Positions 2,452 to 7,942 of a stretch of DNA of 7,942 bases are shown in pieces (the stretch's first letter is position 1; each line of letters starts with the position of its first letter). The notes beneath the pieces are model-generated. The model was given only the letters and a program-made list of their open reading frames with translations, did not search any database and was not told the origin of the DNA. The translations under genes and the position numbers were made by a program. This DNA comes from a virus (Duplodnaviria; Heunggongvirae; Uroviricota; Caudoviricetes), in the IMG/VR virus record IMGVR_UViG_2740892235_000013. One strand, 5' to 3'.

Positions 2452-3829
2452 ATGTGGCCTTTCAGAAGAAAAAAAGAGCAGCGCAGCATGACGCTTGATG
2501 AATTTATGGCGCTGGCTGGCACATCGAACACGGGGGCGGGTGAGTACGTATCATCGGGGACAGCGGAATCACTGCCCGCCGTCATGAACGCCGTCACGGT
2601 CATCTCTGAGGCGGTGGCTACCATGCCGTGTTACCTGTACCTGGTACGCAATGAGAAGGGGAAGGAGGCCCGCGAGTGGCTTGATTCTCATCCGGTCGAT
2701 CACATCCTCAACGAGCGCCCGAACGCATGGCAAACCCCCTACCAGTTTAAGCGAATGATGATCCGCCACTGCCTGTTAAACGGTAATGCTTATGCGGTGA
2801 TTCAGTGGGGGCGTGATGGTTTTCCGGTGGCTTTACATCCTTACCCGCCGCAGTCGGTGAACGTGGAGCAGACAGGTGAGCATAACTGGCGCTACTGCAT
2901 CACTGACGCCTACACCGGAAACACCCGCAACTATTTACCGTGGGAGGTTCTCCACCTTCGTTACTCCACGGATGACGGTTTTATGGGGCGCTCACCTGTA
3001 ACCATCTGCCGCGAATCGCTGGGGCTTGGGCTGGCCCAACAACGCCACGGCGCGAGCGTGATGCGTGATGGCATGATGGCGGCAGGGGTTATCACGTCAG
3101 GCGAATGGCTGGACGGCGTGAAGGGCAAACAGGCATTAGCCGCACTGGAACGCTACAAAGGGGCCAGAAACGCCGGAAAAACGCCCATCCTTGAAGGGGG
3201 TATGAGCTATCAGCAGCTGGGCATGAGTAATCAGGATGCTGAATGGCTGGCCTCCCGTCGCTTCACCATTGAAGACATCGCCCGAATGTTCAACGTCTCG
3301 CCGATTTTTTTNNNNNNNNNNTAAAGGGGCCAGAAACGCCGGAAAAACGCCCATCCTTGAAGGTGGCATGAGTTACCAGCAGCTGGGCATGAGTAACCAG
3401 GATGCTGAATGGCTGGCCTCCCGTCGCTTCACCATTGAAGACATCGCCCGAATGTTCAACGTCTCGCCGATTTTTTTGCAGGAATACAGCAACAGCACCT
3501 ACAGCAATTTCAGCGAGGCAAGCCGCGCATTTCTCACCATGACGATGCGCCCGTGGCTGGCGAACTTTGAGCAGCAGATAAAAAACGCCCTGCTGGTGGC
3601 CTCGCCTGTACCTGGTATCCGGTATCAGGTGGAGTTTGACAGCGCGGACCTGTTACGGGCCACACCTGGCGAACGCTTTGCCACCTATGAGCGCGGCATC
3701 AAATCCGGCGTTATGTGTCCGAACGAAGCCCGCGAACGTGAAGGACTGTCACCGCGTGATGGTGGTGATGAGTTCAGCCAGGCATGGAAACAGGAAGTAA
3801 AAATCAGCGAGGGAGAAAAACCGGAATGA
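2452..3829 (+). CDS. Portal protein, HK97 family (about 403 aa once the duplication is collapsed)
   Basis: ATG 2452 is 1 nt after the protease stop. Portal-like sequence throughout (RESLGLGLAQQ, GMSNQDAEWLASRRFTIEDIARMFNVSP, PWLANFEQQI). Frame broken only by the N run at 3312-3321 plus a 155-bp duplication (166 nt net). Stop TGA 3827-3829. Confidence 0.9.
3157..3477. repeat. Tandem near-identical overlap (3157-3311 and 3323-3477) around the 10-N gap at 3312-3321; assembly artefact inside the portal gene
   Basis: The copies differ at 5 positions, all synonymous third-codon changes (ggg/ggt, ggt/ggc, agc/agt, tat/tac, aat/aac). Confidence 0.85.
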
Positions 3830-4460
3830 ACATAGGGCGACTGCGTGACAGGGTAACGATTCAGACCCTGAAACAGACCAGGGATATAACCGGCGAAATA
3901 CTCGAAACGTGGGAGGACAGTCACACACTCTGGGCAAGCGTGAACATGGTCAGCAGCAAGGAGGCCATTTCATCGGGTGCAGAGCTGGCGATTGGTACCG
4001 TAAGGATCTGGATACGGTACCGGAAGGACATCAGCGCCACCAGCCGGATAAAGGTCAATACGGGGCCGCTGGCGGGGCGTGTACTGAATATCATCGGGCA
4101 GCCGCTGCCGGATGCCGCCAGGACACGCCTTGAAATTCNNNNNNNNNNATAACGATTCAGACCCTGAAACAGACCAGAGCCATGACGGGCGAAATACTCG
4201 AAACGTGGGAGGACGGTCACACACTCTGGGCAAGCGTGAACATGATCAGCAGCAAGGAGGCCATTTCATCGGGCGCAGAGCTGGCGATTGGTACCGTAAG
4301 GATCTGGATACGGTACCGGAAGGACATCAACGCCACCAGTCGGATAAAGGTCAGTACGGGGCCGCTGGCGGGGCGTGTACTGAATATCATCGGGCAGCCG
4401 CTGCCGGATGCCGCCAGGACACGCCTTGAAATTCTTTGTCGTGAGGGCGCGGAAAAATGA
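3826..4460 (+). CDS. Head-closure / head-tail joining protein (SPP1 gp16-like family), 112 aa once collapsed
   Basis: ATG 3826 overlaps the portal stop (ATGA). Family-like pattern LRDRVTIQ...GE..ETWED.HTLWASV...S.KEAISSGAELAIGTVRIWIRYRKDI. Frame interrupted by the N run at 4139-4148 plus a 286-bp duplication (296 nt net). Stop TGA 4458-4460. Confidence 0.8.
3854..4434. repeat. Tandem near-identical overlap (3854-4138 and 4150-4434) around the 10-N gap at 4139-4148; assembly artefact inside the head-closure gene
   Basis: About 10 substitutions between copies, including amino-acid changes (DI/AM, S/G, V/I, S/N, N/S) and synonymous changes. Confidence 0.85.
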
Positions 4461-4916
4461 CAGAAGAACTTATCACCCTGGAAGAAGTGAAACTCCATTG
4501 CCGCATCGATGGCGACGATGAAGACCAGTTAATCAGCGGATACATTGCCGCATCGCTTGAGGCGTGCCAGATACACATAGGCAGGCGCTTTGATGACGGG
4601 CTGGAGTTCACGCCAGCCATAAAGATTGGCTGCATGATGTTTATCGCTCACCTGTANNNNNNNNNNTATCGATGGCGACGAGGAAGACCAGTTAATCAGC
4701 GGATACATTGCCGCATCGCTTGAGGCGTGCCAGATACATATAGGCAGGCGCTTTGATGACGGGCTGGAGTTCACGCCAGCCATAAAGATTGGCTGCATGA
4801 TGTTTATCGCTCACCTGTATGAGAATCGCCAGATTGTCGCGGATAACGCAAAAACACGCGTACCCATGACGATTGGCGCACTCTGGACGGCTTACCGTGA
4901 TGTGGGGGTGTACTGA
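4457..4916 (+). CDS. gp6-like head-tail connector protein, 98 aa once collapsed
   Basis: ATG 4457 overlaps the upstream stop (ATGA). N-terminus MTEELITLEEVKLHCRIDGDDEDQLISGYIAASLEA is typical of gp6-like connectors. Frame interrupted by the N run at 4657-4666 plus a 152-bp duplication (163 nt net). Stop TGA 4914-4916. Confidence 0.75.
4505..4819. repeat. Tandem near-identical overlap (4505-4656 and 4668-4819) around the 10-N gap at 4657-4666; assembly artefact inside the connector gene
   Basis: Two substitutions between copies: gat/gag (Asp/Glu) and cac/cat (synonymous). Confidence 0.85.
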
Positions 4917-5356
4917 TGCCGTGGCAACCATTAAGACGATGCACAGAACCAGGCTGTAACAGGCGCGTTAAATCCGGCAAGTGTGAGGAGCACAGGCGGG
5001 CGGCATGGCGTGCAGAGGATGCCAGACGAGGACACCGCCGCGCGCGTGGATATTCCAGACAGTGGGACAAATACCGCGCCATGTATCTGAGTAAAAACCC
5101 GTTATGCGTGCGATGCCTTGAGAAGGGGATATATACGCCCGCCGTGGTGGTGGATCACATTATCCCGATTAATGGCGGTGATGATGTTCTCTTCTGGCCC
5201 GAATGGAACCATCAACCATTGTGCCAGGCGTGTCATAACCAGAAAACGAAATGGCTTGATCCGGCAACAAAAAGCAAGCGTGCCGCAGGTGGATTTCGTG
5301 AAGAGGAAGAACGGGCCGCTAACCGCAATAACTGGATGTATGACGCTGATGAATGA
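4916..5356 (+). CDS. HNH endonuclease (phage packaging-associated type), 146 aa
   Basis: ATG 4916 overlaps the connector stop (TGATG). Cys-rich N-terminus (CTEPGCNRRVKSGKCEEH) and HNH core (VVDHIIPINGG...NHQPLCQACHNQKT). Stop TGA 5354-5356. Confidence 0.9.
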   Translation: MPWQPLRRCTEPGCNRRVKSGKCEEHRRAAWRAEDARRGHRRARGYSRQWDKYRAMYLSKNPLCVRCLEKGIYTPAVVVDHIIPINGGDDVLFWPEWNHQPLCQACHNQKTKWLDPATKSKRAAGGFREEEERAANRNNWMYDADE

Positions 5357-5522
5357 GCGGGAGCAAAACCGCCTTATCCGTGGACTTATAAGGCAGCGTG
5401 ACGCATGGAAGACACAGGAAACAGGGCATAAAGATAAAGCGTCAGGACGCGCAGAACGCATCACAGCGAAGCGATTAACCGACCGTGACCGCGAGGTTAT
5501 GGAATGTTTCCGCAATCGCTGA
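5349..5522 (+). CDS. Small hypothetical protein (57 aa, Arg/Lys-rich)
   Basis: ATG 5349 overlaps the HNH stop by 8 nt (ATGAATGA). Translation MNEREQNRLIRGLIRQRDAWKTQETGHKDKASGRAERITAKRLTDRDREVMECFRNR. No clear RBS, so translation would have to be coupled. No recognisable family. Confidence 0.4.
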   Translation: MNEREQNRLIRGLIRQRDAWKTQETGHKDKASGRAERITAKRLTDRDREVMECFRNR

Positions 5523-5645
5523 TGAGGCTGTATGACGGGGTGGGGGGCGTTTTCAGGACCAACCCGACCCCGCCGGGCACCGAACGCCTCCTCAAATTTT
5601 TATGCACGGGAATTTTTTGAAAAATAATCTGGCGAAAAAATAAGC
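5523..5645. promoter_or_regulatory. Non-coding spacer upstream of terS; candidate cos/packaging-initiation region
   Basis: 123 bp with no ORF. G-run gacggggtggggggcgttttcagg followed by C-rich caacccgaccccgccgggcaccg, then an AT-rich tract (aaatttttatgcacgggaattttttgaaaaataat). Sits between HNH and terS, where cos lies in HK97-type phages. Confidence 0.35.
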
Positions 5646-6002
5646 ATGGCAAGACCACCGAAAGCCCCCGCCTACCTGGATGATATCGCCGTGAAGCAGT
5701 GGCGGGAAAAATCGCGGCAGCTTGCGGAACGGGGAGACCTGACCCCCGCCGACTGGAGCAATCTGGAACTGTATTGTGTCAACTACTCCATTTACCGGAA
5801 AGCCGTTGCAGACCTTGCGGCGCGCGGGTTCAGCATTGTTAACAGTCAGGGCGGCGAGAGCAGAAACCCCGCATTAAGCGCAAAATCCGACGCTGAAAGA
5901 GTGATGATAAAAATGGCCTCCTTGCTCGGTTTTGACCCGATAAGCCGCCGTAAAAATCCACCGGAAACAGAAGAAGAGGACGAGCTTGACCGCCTGGAAT
6001 AA
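5646..6002 (+). CDS. terS: Terminase small subunit, P27 family, 118 aa
   Basis: ATG 5646, stop TAA 6000-6002. P27-family-like pattern (LTPADWSNLELYCVNYSIYRKA...NPALSAKSDAERVMIKMASLLGFDPISRRK) with an acidic C-terminus. Confidence 0.85.
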   Translation: MARPPKAPAYLDDIAVKQWREKSRQLAERGDLTPADWSNLELYCVNYSIYRKAVADLAARGFSIVNSQGGESRNPALSAKSDAERVMIKMASLLGFDPISRRKNPPETEEEDELDRLE

Positions 6003-7647
6003 GTACGCAGAAGACGTAAAAACGGGCAAAATTCCGGCCTGTAAACGGCTGAAACAGGCCGTTAAACGGTACTTTTCGGACCTTGAAAGCCCCCTTTACA
6101 CGTTCGATCGTGAGGTTGTGGAGCGGTTTATTGCCTTTTCCAGGGTGTGCCCGCACGTAAAAGGGCCGATGCGTGGCAGACCCATTGAGCTGGAGCCGTG
6201 GCAGCAGTTCGCCTTTGCGTGCATCCTCGGCTTTAAGGTTAAGGCCACCGGACGGCGCAAATACACGAGCGCCTTTATCGAAGTGCCGCGCAAAAATGCG
6301 AAATCCACGACCGCCGCGATTCTGGCTAACTGGTTTCTGATTATGGAGAACGGGCAGCAGGATATTTACACCGCAGCGGTGAGCCGTGACCAGGCGCGGA
6401 TCGTTTTTGATGATGCGCGTCAGATGTGCCTTTTATCCCGACCGTTACGCAGGCGGGTGAATATTCAGGCCCACAAGGTGATGCACCCGAAAAGCAACAG
6501 CCTGTTAAAGCCGCTGGCAGCAAAAGCGGCAACCATCGAGGGAACAAACCCCAGCCTTTCCATCGTGGACGAATACCACCTACACCCCGATAACGGCGTT
6601 TATTCCGCGCTTGAGCTGGGGATGGGCGCACGTCCCGAAGGGCTGTTATTTGCCATTACCACATCGGGCAGTAACGTCGTTTCAGCCTGTAAACAGCACT
6701 ATGATTATTGCTGCCAGATCCTGGACGGCGAAGAGGTCAATGATTCAATTTTTGTGCTGATTTACGAGCTGGACGACGAAAACGAGGTTGATGATCCGGC
6801 GATGTGGATAAAGGCTAACCCTAACATCGATGTTTCCGTGGATCGTGAAAAACTGGCCTCAACCATCCAGAAAGCGCGGGGTATTCCGTCGCAATGGGTG
6901 GAGATGATGACAAAGCGATTTAATATCTGGTGCCAGGGGGCTACCCCGTGGATGGGTAACGGCGCATGGGCTGAGTGTGCCGGAACGTTCACGGAGGAAG
7001 ATTTACACGGGCAGGAGTGTTACGCGGGGCTGGACTTATCATCAACCAGCGATATTTCCAGCGTGTGCTATGCCTTTCCGGTCGGTAAAAATATCATGCT
7101 GGTTTCCCGTCATTATCTGCCGGAGTTCCAGCTACAGAACCCCGCCAATAAAAACCGCGCTGTCTATCGCCAGTGGGCTAAAGCGGGCTGGATACGCACA
7201 ACGCCAGGTGACTGCATTGATTACGACCGGATCAGAGATGACATCATGCAGGATGCGGAGAAATTTAATATCAGGCTGGTGGGCTTTGATACGTGGAACG
7301 CCACGCATCTCAGGACGCAATTACAGGGGGCTGGTTTTGAGGTGGAGCCGTTCCCGCAAACCTACCTCAGATTCAGTCCGGCGGCGAAATCGTTCGAAGT
7401 TTTTGTTAACCGCAGGGTGATTGTGCATCGTGGCGATCCGGTGTTGTCCTGGTCGATGAGTAACGTCGTGATGCAGAGTGACGCGAACGCCAATATCAAG
7501 CCGAACAAGAAAAAATCACCGAACAAGATAGACCCGAGCGTAGCGGCGCTGATGGCGTTTGGTACATTCCAGGCAGAGCATGAGGATTTTGCTTTTGATA
7601 TAAGCGACAGCCACCGCCAGAAACTGGAAGAATTTAGCGGGGTGTAA
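5986..7647 (+). CDS. terL: Terminase large subunit, 553 aa
   Basis: TTG 5986 is the only start codon in frame after the upstream stop at 5941-5943; it overlaps terS by 17 nt with a purine-rich stretch (gaagaagagga) upstream. N-terminal blocks typical of this terminase family (YAEDVKTGKIPACKRLKQAVKRY, HVKGPMRGRPIELEPWQQF), P-loop-like PRKNAKSTTAA, acidic nuclease-domain residues downstream. Stop TAA 7645-7647. Confidence 0.9.
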   Translation: MTAWNKYAEDVKTGKIPACKRLKQAVKRYFSDLESPLYTFDREVVERFIAFSRVCPHVKGPMRGRPIELEPWQQFAFACILGFKVKATGRRKYTSAFIEVPRKNAKSTTAAILANWFLIMENGQQDIYTAAVSRDQARIVFDDARQMCLLSRPLRRRVNIQAHKVMHPKSNSLLKPLAAKAATIEGTNPSLSIVDEYHLHPDNGVYSALELGMGARPEGLLFAITTSGSNVVSACKQHYDYCCQILDGEEVNDSIFVLIYELDDENEVDDPAMWIKANPNIDVSVDREKLASTIQKARGIPSQWVEMMTKRFNIWCQGATPWMGNGAWAECAGTFTEEDLHGQECYAGLDLSSTSDISSVCYAFPVGKNIMLVSRHYLPEFQLQNPANKNRAVYRQWAKAGWIRTTPGDCIDYDRIRDDIMQDAEKFNIRLVGFDTWNATHLRTQLQGAGFEVEPFPQTYLRFSPAAKSFEVFVNRRVIVHRGDPVLSWSMSNVVMQSDANANIKPNKKKSPNKIDPSVAALMAFGTFQAEHEDFAFDISDSHRQKLEEFSGV

Positions 7648-7660
7648 TGAGGTCAGCAGC

Positions 7661-7942
7661 ATGACAGAAGCCGAAATACTGCGATTAATCCGCCGCGTCT
7701 CTGGAATCAGCCAGCAGGCTGACGAACAGACCACGCAGCCGGACAGCGTGACAGCCGAAAATTATGCGCGTGTTGTTGCTGAGGTGATGCGCCGTGATGG
7801 TATCCAGCTTAATGATGCGGATATGCGCGACATACGGATCCGCGTTCTGGAAATGCTGGCCTACAATCGCCGCGTTGAACTGTATCGGGAGAAGGAGAAA
7901 ATCACGTATCACTGGAAGAAGCCGGAGCGGTTACGGCGGTAA
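7661..7942 (+). CDS. Hypothetical protein (93 aa) immediately downstream of terL
   Basis: ATG 7661 with GAGG 8 nt upstream; stop TAA 7940-7942 at the window edge. Translation MTEAEILRLIRRVSGISQQADEQTT...; no recognisable family. Occupies the position where a portal gene sits in canonical phages. Confidence 0.5.
   Translation: MTEAEILRLIRRVSGISQQADEQTTQPDSVTAENYARVVAEVMRRDGIQLNDADMRDIRIRVLEMLAYNRRVELYREKEKITYHWKKPERLRR

Follow-up and report, generated by a model that had tools for sequence, protein, structure and literature searches.

A 93-residue protein is very probably encoded by a terminal backbone gene of enterobacterial PICIs

Directly after the large terminase gene (terL), where a phage would have its portal gene, the viral record IMGVR_UViG_2740892235_000013 carries an open reading frame (ORF) for a protein of 93 residues. 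This position raises two questions: to which part of the element does the gene belong, and what might its product do? A preliminary description had placed it last in a packaging block, as a possible accessory factor. We address both questions using the whole stretch of DNA that was analysed (hereafter the window; 7,942 nucleotides), together with homologous loci from complete genomes and from IMG/VR.

Results

The ORF is a conserved gene under purifying selection

The ORF closes the window, whose last base is that of its stop codon, and is surrounded by the following features.

5986–7647, + strand: terL (large terminase, ATPase and nuclease domains), the last gene of an HK97-type packaging cassette, with its stop codon TAA at 7645–7647
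7648–7660, + strand: 13-nt spacer between terL and the ORF, tgaggtcagcagc; right-hand junction between the packaging cassette and the PICI backbone
7649–7652, + strand: Shine–Dalgarno-like GAGG 8 nt upstream of the start codon, as seen in the sequence itself
7661–7942, + strand: coding sequence of the 93-aa protein, with ATG at 7661 and TAA at 7940–7942; the protein starts MTEAEILRLIRRVSGISQQ
7928–7942, + strand: stem-loop CGGTTAC-GGCG-GTAAC.. over the stop codon (left arm, loop and start of the right arm)

The window consists of six pieces of one region joined by five N10 spacers (138–147, 1339–1348, 3312–3321, 4139–4148 and 4657–4666), and the pieces overlap by around 130–290 bp once they are mapped onto one chromosome (L001 9624–16543). 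Because the window is stitched in this way, the capsid, portal, head-closure and connector ORFs look duplicated or interrupted in it. The piece that holds the 93-aa ORF (4667–7942) is contiguous and 99.8% identical to a complete Escherichia coli chromosome. The encoded protein is identical to RefSeq WP_000133415.1 ('hypothetical protein') and is present, without a single difference, on at least 1000 public contigs.

The protein has 965 homologues at E ≤ 1e-3, and its length is conserved across genera at 86–94 aa. The reading frame is kept in 11 diverged genomic copies, including Citrobacter-type copies with an in-frame deletion of 8 codons in the linker region, and pairwise dN/dS values among these copies (0.16–0.51) reveal purifying selection. 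Invariant or nearly invariant residues are G47, L50, N51, D54, I58, R61, Y83, W85 and the C-terminal KKPERLRR. The codons for P88, R90 and L91 vary synonymously while the residues stay unchanged, and the tail is therefore constrained at the protein level.

The last ~30 nt of the ORF are nearly invariant in DNA even between copies that share 43% amino acid identity, and they overlap both the stem-loop and a repeat unit, as would be expected if a chance frame were being held open by a conserved cis-acting DNA site. We attach next to no probability to this explanation, because dN/dS is 0.16–0.5 across the whole ORF, the frame survives the 8-codon indel, the tail codons show synonymous changes, a ribosome-binding site is present and the length is conserved between genera. 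The gene had been described as well formed, with GAGG 8 nt upstream of its ATG and 13 nt after the terL stop, and the sequence, the homologues and the dN/dS values bear this out. The ORF at 7661–7942 is a genuine, selected and satellite-specific gene.

The window is the packaging operon of a capsid-forming PICI

The window is the packaging operon of a capsid-forming PICI (cf-PICI) of the EcCIEDL933 type; PICIs, or phage-inducible chromosomal islands, are a group of phage satellites. In NZ_CP027368 it maps to an island of about 15 kb that is inserted in tqsA. This island carries, in order, int, an AlpA-like HTH gene, an Icd-like gene and genes for DUF4222, a RepA helicase, SSB and PerC, followed by genes for the major capsid protein, prohead protease, portal, head closure, connector and HNH proteins, a 60-aa ORF, P27-type TerS, TerL and the 93-aa ORF. 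Around 800 bp of non-coding DNA separate the last ORF from the other tqsA fragment. In an O157:H7 strain, an island with the same layout lies between roxA and phoQ, with an identical 93-aa protein as its last gene. Two further features lie between the HNH and terS genes.

5340–5522 (L001 13941–14123), + strand: 60-aa ORF in the HNH–terS interval; no match in NCBIfam
5523–5645: gap of 123 bp after the 60-aa ORF, the likely cos region

The placement of cos in this gap follows the order HNH, cos, terS, which we take to be that of HK97.

In proteobacterial cf-PICIs the morphogenetic genes come first and hnh–terS–terL follow (Alqurainy et al., bioRxiv 10.1101/2022.09.08.507074), and EcCIEDL933 has the same order of capsid, protease, portal, connectors, HNH, terS and terL as the window. 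Counting from its capsid gene, 1786 (He et al., bioRxiv 10.1101/2025.02.11.637232), the 93-aa ORF would correspond to EcCIEDL933 gene 1795 and the 60-aa ORF to 'hypothetical gene 1792'. The cf-PICI papers report that transfer of a gene 1792 mutant is severely reduced, this being the one mutant in which transfer was reduced rather than abolished. The capsid, the terminase, HNH, the connectors and gene 1792 are characterised in the EcCIEDL933 papers; the 93-aa ORF is not mentioned in the preprint texts (bioRxiv 10.1101/2022.09.08.507074 and 10.1101/2025.02.11.637232).

Exchange of the packaging cassette stops at the start codon

The O157:H7 cf-PICI (L181) and a classical PICI of O55:H7 (L009), which has capsid-E, decoration and TerS-like genes, occupy the same roxA–phoQ site. 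The two islands are 85–95% identical through the replication, SSB and PerC region until around 260 bp before the capsid gene, and have nothing in common across their packaging modules (6.6 kb versus 3.25 kb). Homology then restarts exactly at the first base of the ATG of the 93-aa ORF and runs on into the right end. The ORF therefore counts among the backbone sequences that both islands share, and the exchange of the HK97-type cassette took place upstream of it. The pair has the appearance of a clean exchange of the late cassette.

Close relatives of the window's cassette also occur without the gene. Among 59 IMG/VR cf-PICI loci whose TerL is 92–95% identical, 18 do not have the 93-aa ORF; in related cf-PICIs that do, the junction between terL and the ORF measures 13 nt (24 loci) or 5 nt (16 loci). 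Downstream of terL, the ORF-less loci have an unrelated right end that contains TTGCGGGTTAT repeats, and beyond it a disrupted prophage terminase and a portal gene. Several of them (L061, L064, L066, L073 and others) have three direct TTGCGGGTTAT repeats and three inverted copies at around 4660–5200, after which come a truncated prophage terminase-nuclease ORF and the portal gene; these cf-PICIs appear to be embedded in a prophage late region. Given the restart at the ATG and the 18 loci without the gene, inheritance inside the HK97-type cassette is not what we found. The gene seems to stand where a phage would have its portal because a cf-PICI cassette happens to sit upstream.

The gene ends islands with unrelated modules

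The gene alone was detected by blastn in 1567 of 5426 complete E. coli genomes (around 29%), at 2008 places and up to 6 times per genome, and the 3' part of the cf-PICI terL was found by the same search in 534 genomes at 579 places. Around 70% of the E. coli copies thus have no adjacent cf-PICI terL. Together with the restart of homology at the ATG and its absence from 18 of the 59 close relatives, this leaves the view of the gene as the last of the packaging block unsupported.

By taxon, homologues were found in Escherichia/Shigella, in Citrobacter and as one Salmonella fragment; a divergent branch (43% identity) comes from Citrobacter and includes the Salmonella fragment. When one genome per species was scanned, the only locus found was in Shigella.

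In the best 80 IMG/VR loci, the nearest recognised upstream gene encoded a TerS-like protein (28), the cf-PICI TerL (21), RppA (15) or a Nu1-like protein (3); one of the remaining 13 had a 136-aa ORF upstream and 12 had none of these. The nearest upstream gene was therefore terminase-related in 67 of the 80, often at a spacing of 2–14 nt, which leaves some room for a packaging-linked role. In other PICIs the gene is preceded by Rpp, TerS-like, Nu1-like, DUF1441, ClpP–capsid fusion or PerC genes. It is the last or near-last co-oriented gene in the Nissle tRNA-Pro island, the O55:H7 island, the fis island and a helper-embedded PICI located inside a prophage portal gene, and also in islands that have a ClpP-protease/capsid fusion plus a DUF1441 or TerS-like gene. 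In Citrobacter islands the homologue is last or near-last beside unrelated late genes, and in islands that have no capsid or terminase genes (L015–L017) it follows two PerC genes and precedes antiterminator Q. Comparison of gene neighbourhoods, which had been proposed as a check, thus shows a gene that follows many different late modules rather than terL specifically.

The islands that bear the gene use RepA, D5 or DUF927 replication genes and at least five kinds of late module. Their integrases are 90%, 55% or 24% identical to that of L001, and the ORF stays at 88–93% nucleotide identity. The gene accordingly occurs in islands of PICI layout irrespective of their packaging, replication or integration module. 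We conclude that it is, with high probability, the terminal, co-oriented backbone gene of enterobacterial PICIs, and that its presence does not depend on which packaging cassette, integrase clade or replication module an island has.

Some of these islands carry other genes beside it. In L015–L017 the Phage_antitermQ gene lies at 9834–10226, downstream of a homologue whose N-terminal 30 residues differ. In L018/L019 (5521–8179, − strand), a cargo of PAAR, Pyocin_S toxin and CdiI_5 immunity genes stands between a Nu1-like gene and a 94-aa homologue, with an extra PerC gene downstream, which illustrates a 3' cargo hot spot beside the gene.

A homologue in EcCICFT073 and an improbable packaging role

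In EcCICFT073, the prototype classical PICI, the homologue again comes last, after genes for a capsid-E-like protein, a decoration protein, a hypothetical protein and the 144-aa RppA (c1503), and before phoQ. An EcCICFT073 c1504-c1507::cat derivative transfers at around 1e6–1e7 TFU/ml (PMC10460865). With RppA directly upstream and phoQ directly downstream, the homologue very probably lies inside this deletion, by a mapping of the old c-numbers onto the RefSeq annotation. The 93-aa protein is thus probably dispensable for helper-mediated transfer under laboratory conditions, an argument that concerns the classical PICI rather than the cf-PICI.

In islands of this kind, the rpp or TerS-like gene lies between two exact copies of the lambda-type cosN (GGGCGGCGACCT) that are inverted relative to each other.

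L010 2559–2570 (+ strand) and 3298–3309 (− strand): lambda-type cosN pair
L008 13057 (+ strand) and 13924 (− strand): lambda-type cosN pair
L009 13058 (+ strand) and 13925 (− strand): lambda-type cosN pair

The second cosN lies 76–77 nt upstream of the 93-aa gene, including in EcCICFT073-type islands, and the inverted pair presumably represents the published cos1 and cos2 of EcCICFT073.

These neighbours bear on whether the protein could be a packaging accessory, that is, a terminase- or cos-associated protein that aids TerS, Rpp or a Nu1-like protein in starting or finishing packaging, or that sets its specificity. We consider this improbable. Its place immediately downstream of a terminase-related gene in 67 of the 80 loci sampled, spacings that hint at translational coupling (13 or 5 nt from terL, 2 nt from DUF1441 and 11–12 nt from TerS-like or Nu1-like genes), the cosN 76 nt upstream in EcCICFT073-type islands and a basic C-terminal third that suits DNA binding would all fit such a role. 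[quoted passage not shown] It also occurs in islands with no terminase-like gene (after PerC in L015–L017, or after the ClpP–capsid fusion) and accompanies unrelated terminase systems, P27-type TerS/TerL in some islands and lambda Nu1/Rpp in others. Moreover, the c1504-c1507::cat island still transfers (PMC10460865), and the protein resembles neither RppA nor a lambda-W-like protein (see below). The packaging-specificity or tail-adaptation function suggested earlier is likewise unlikely for a gene that lies outside the cassette and is missing from those 18 loci, and tail compatibility of cf-PICI capsids is reported to be determined by the head–tail adaptor and connector genes rather than by this one (bioRxiv 10.1101/2025.02.11.637232).

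DNA motifs at the stop codon and the right end

The near-invariant end of the ORF also contains DNA features. The stem-loop CGGTTAC-GGCG-GTAAC over the stop codon was flagged by a terminator scan in EcCICFT073. The stop codon TAA forms the first three bases of the motif TAACTTGTTGATT, which fits YAANNNNTTGATW and extends past the end of the window; YAANNNNTTGATW is the reverse complement of WATCAANNNNTTR, the IHF consensus. Locus L001 (32.5 kb) has four exact matches, of which three lie no more than 200 bp from the stop codon and share the + strand, and motif clusters that begin at the stop codon recur in other islands. Of 35 distinct downstream regions, 24 contained one or more + strand matches in the first 400 bp, and a minus-strand match was present in a single region; the density in the 2.4 kb upstream was 0.005 per kb. 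Right ends without the ORF also have two IHF-like motifs. Because the motif is unchanged as the protein diverges and is found in ORF-less right ends, it is best read as a host-factor feature of PICI right ends. We had considered the array as a binding site of the 93-aa protein itself, and dropped this idea because the motif equals the IHF consensus, stays constant at 43% protein identity and occurs where the ORF is missing.

Arrays of three to five same-strand motifs of the type YAANNNNTTGATW were seen at L001 16541–16811 (just past the window end), L008 14280–14445, L010 3653–3818, L002 10259–10663 and L011 7534–7654. A short palindrome, GCGCAAAATTGCGC or CCTCAATTTGAGG, comes after most of the motifs in these arrays; their spacing commonly measures 52–54 bp, and the first motif often overlaps the stop codon. 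A doubled motif, GGTGTAGTCAnnGGTGTAGTCA, occurs once near each island end (L001 1985–2007 and 17263–17285; L009 3797–3817 and 14777–14797) and is probably an integrase arm-type site; it agrees with the doubled motif that PMC10111431 describes for this integrase clade.

A recombination directionality or integration accessory factor, acting on the right att arm with IHF, would be a further option for a small protein with a basic C terminus whose gene is the nearest to attR and whose stop codon starts a same-strand cluster of IHF-consensus-like motifs. We regard it as very unlikely. Directionality factors normally co-vary with the integrase, whereas this gene occurs with integrases that are only 24% identical. 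The doubled arm-type motif (GGTGTAGTCA twice) lies around 80 bp from the core and 470–720 bp from the gene and its IHF-like array, in agreement with the doubled motif that has been placed at 81 and 132 bp from the attP centre (PMC10111431). IHF-like motifs are also present in right ends without the gene, AlpA is the factor already reported to bring about excision and induction in these islands (PMC6092414), excision, transfer and integration all persist in the c1504-c1507::cat island, and Pfam gave no HTH family match for the protein or for any member of its alignment. We therefore dropped this reading on account of integrase diversity and the distance from the core.

Of the 80 IMG/VR contigs (L100–L179), 25 stop exactly 3 nt past the last codon of the gene, and so does the window. 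It seems that provirus callers set the boundary of these satellites at the last gene they call, with loss of the 0.6–0.9 kb right end that contains attR.

A satellite-specific family with a predicted helical hairpin

Searches of Pfam, NCBIfam and PADLOC with the single protein gave no usable match, and neither did Pfam with each of the 13 alignment members; in PADLOC, which models known anti-phage defence systems, nothing matched at E ≤ 10. The neighbouring genes all match phage families in Pfam and this ORF none. Among PDB sequences, phmmer found nothing below E 0.26 and a family-profile search returned zero matches. The protein did match PHROG phrog_1561, a family of unknown function, over positions 1–93 of the 93 in the profile (E 1.5e-55). 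The earlier statement that it has no recognisable family therefore stands for Pfam, NCBIfam, PADLOC and the PDB, and gives way to a full-length family match in PHROG.

By tblastn against 50,697 phage genomes, 0 matches were found, in HK97-like or any other tailed phages, which supports the earlier suggestion of an element-specific accessory factor and places it in a satellite rather than in phages. Since this collection holds no homologue, the members of PHROG 1561 presumably stem from regions that are satellites or 'prophages'. Among 1.84 billion representative proteins, an exhaustive search with phmmer returned 37 proteins only, mostly fragments of the same family, and a deeper family profile was therefore not possible. 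Rfam had nothing in the gene or in the right-end region.

AlphaFold2 predicts an N-terminal helix (around residues 3–13/23), a disordered acidic linker (around 15–30) and a helical hairpin (31–45 and 52–81). Overall pLDDT was 68 without an alignment and 65 with the 13-sequence alignment, with 78–86 in the hairpin; this is a model of moderate confidence, and as a monomer it cannot reveal a dimer or a partner. The C-terminal third is basic, with a net charge of +6 over residues 61–93 as counted from the sequence, and ends in the invariant tail Y83-x-W85-KKPERLRR93. An N-terminal segment, 'LIRRVSGIS', was considered as a helix-turn-helix and dropped, because the acidic segment after it is variable, is missing from the Citrobacter copies and comes out as disordered in the prediction. 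A Foldseek search with the predicted model gave no match at E < 0.1 (best 1.7 in the PDB and 0.27 in BFVD). Remote homology and predicted structure, which had been named as a check, thus returned no match to a housekeeping or phage structural domain in the PDB profile and AlphaFold2/Foldseek searches. Direct comparison with RppA revealed no detectable similarity, and BLASTP against the W-like protein of a CFT073 prophage gave no alignment.

A possible role in satellite–helper–host interplay

Overall, we think that there is about an even chance that the gene is a PICI backbone end-gene encoding a small, non-structural accessory or regulatory protein. On this explanation, the protein would be made on induction from the last cistron of the late operon, using its own GAGG site 13 nt after terL. 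The predicted helical hairpin could provide a scaffold or a dimerisation surface, and the basic C-terminal third (net +6, ending in YxWKKPERLRR) might bind nucleic acid or an acidic protein surface of the host or helper. The protein would then have a modulating or regulatory role, comparable to that of the PerC, ProQ-like and Q regulators in the same islands, and would not be a component of the virion, the terminase or the integration machinery. That the basic third and invariant tail bind a partner, and that the protein in this way modulates the interplay between satellite, helper and host, is a tentative proposal. No homology, fold match or experiment in the sources covered (Pfam, NCBIfam, PADLOC, PDB, Foldseek and the literature) gives the protein an activity.

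The position of the gene also invites another explanation, in which the protein is an interference or defence factor, or a host-benefit 'moron', that acts on the helper, on rival phages or satellites, or on host expression. A hot spot of immune and accessory genes has been reported at the 3' end of PICIs (PMC11364771), and in some islands such cargo (PAAR / Pyocin_S / CdiI, or antiterminator Q) lies directly beside the gene. A satellite-only distribution and probable dispensability for transfer would also agree with it. We nevertheless judge it unlikely: PADLOC has no match, and the gene is conserved under purifying selection, unlike variable cargo. Furthermore, when EcCICFT073 genes downstream of ori were expressed from pBAD, only c1503 (RppA) blocked lambda, reducing its plaques (PMC6739421), and we infer that the homologue was among the clones.

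Returning to the regulatory explanation, a more specific version is speculative and, in our estimate, somewhat doubtful. The family would consist of small regulators or adaptors that are specific to satellites, form a new fold class and are carried by most PICIs of Escherichia, Shigella and Citrobacter; their YxWKKPERLRR tail would target a common component of the host or helper and so tune the satellite life cycle or the exploitation of the helper. Possible targets of the tail include a nucleoid protein at the adjacent IHF-type array and a shared late function of the helper.

Discussion

Both the gene, catalogued as a hypothetical (PHROG 1561; WP_000133415.1), and the type of element that carries it were known before; the new result is that the gene belongs to the backbone independently of the cassette and serves as a boundary marker. 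It should not be counted as part of the capsid and packaging machinery of cf-PICIs. Instead, it shows where the exchangeable late cassette ends on the right-hand side, and is a useful landmark when the limits of PICIs and of their 3' cargo hot spot are to be drawn. Should the protein prove to have a defined target, a missing and nearly universal component would be added to the biology of enterobacterial phage satellites, elements that spread virulence and defence genes and that are now being developed into delivery vehicles. If the regulator or adaptor reading is true, it would amount to a satellite-tuning mechanism not yet described for PICIs.

Four known systems offer comparisons. The head–tail joining protein of the lambda gpW type is also encoded by a small gene directly 3' of the large terminase gene in lambdoid phages. 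By contrast, the 93-aa protein has no sequence similarity to the W-like protein of a CFT073 prophage and no Foldseek match at E < 0.1, is predicted to be all-helical, and is also encoded in islands without capsid genes. The Rpp proteins of E. coli PICIs are, similarly, small, helical, satellite-specific products of the same late region, but they share no detectable similarity with the 93-aa protein, and Rpp is the neighbouring gene. PHROG phrog_1561 is matched over its full length and is itself a family without an assigned function. A further counterpart is the last gene of EcCICFT073 (RefSeq WP_000133413.1), which differs in being preceded by Rpp and an inverted cosN rather than by terL. It likewise encodes 93 aa, aligns over 284 nt at 93.7% identity, stands last before attR/phoQ and has a non-coding right end of the same kind downstream.
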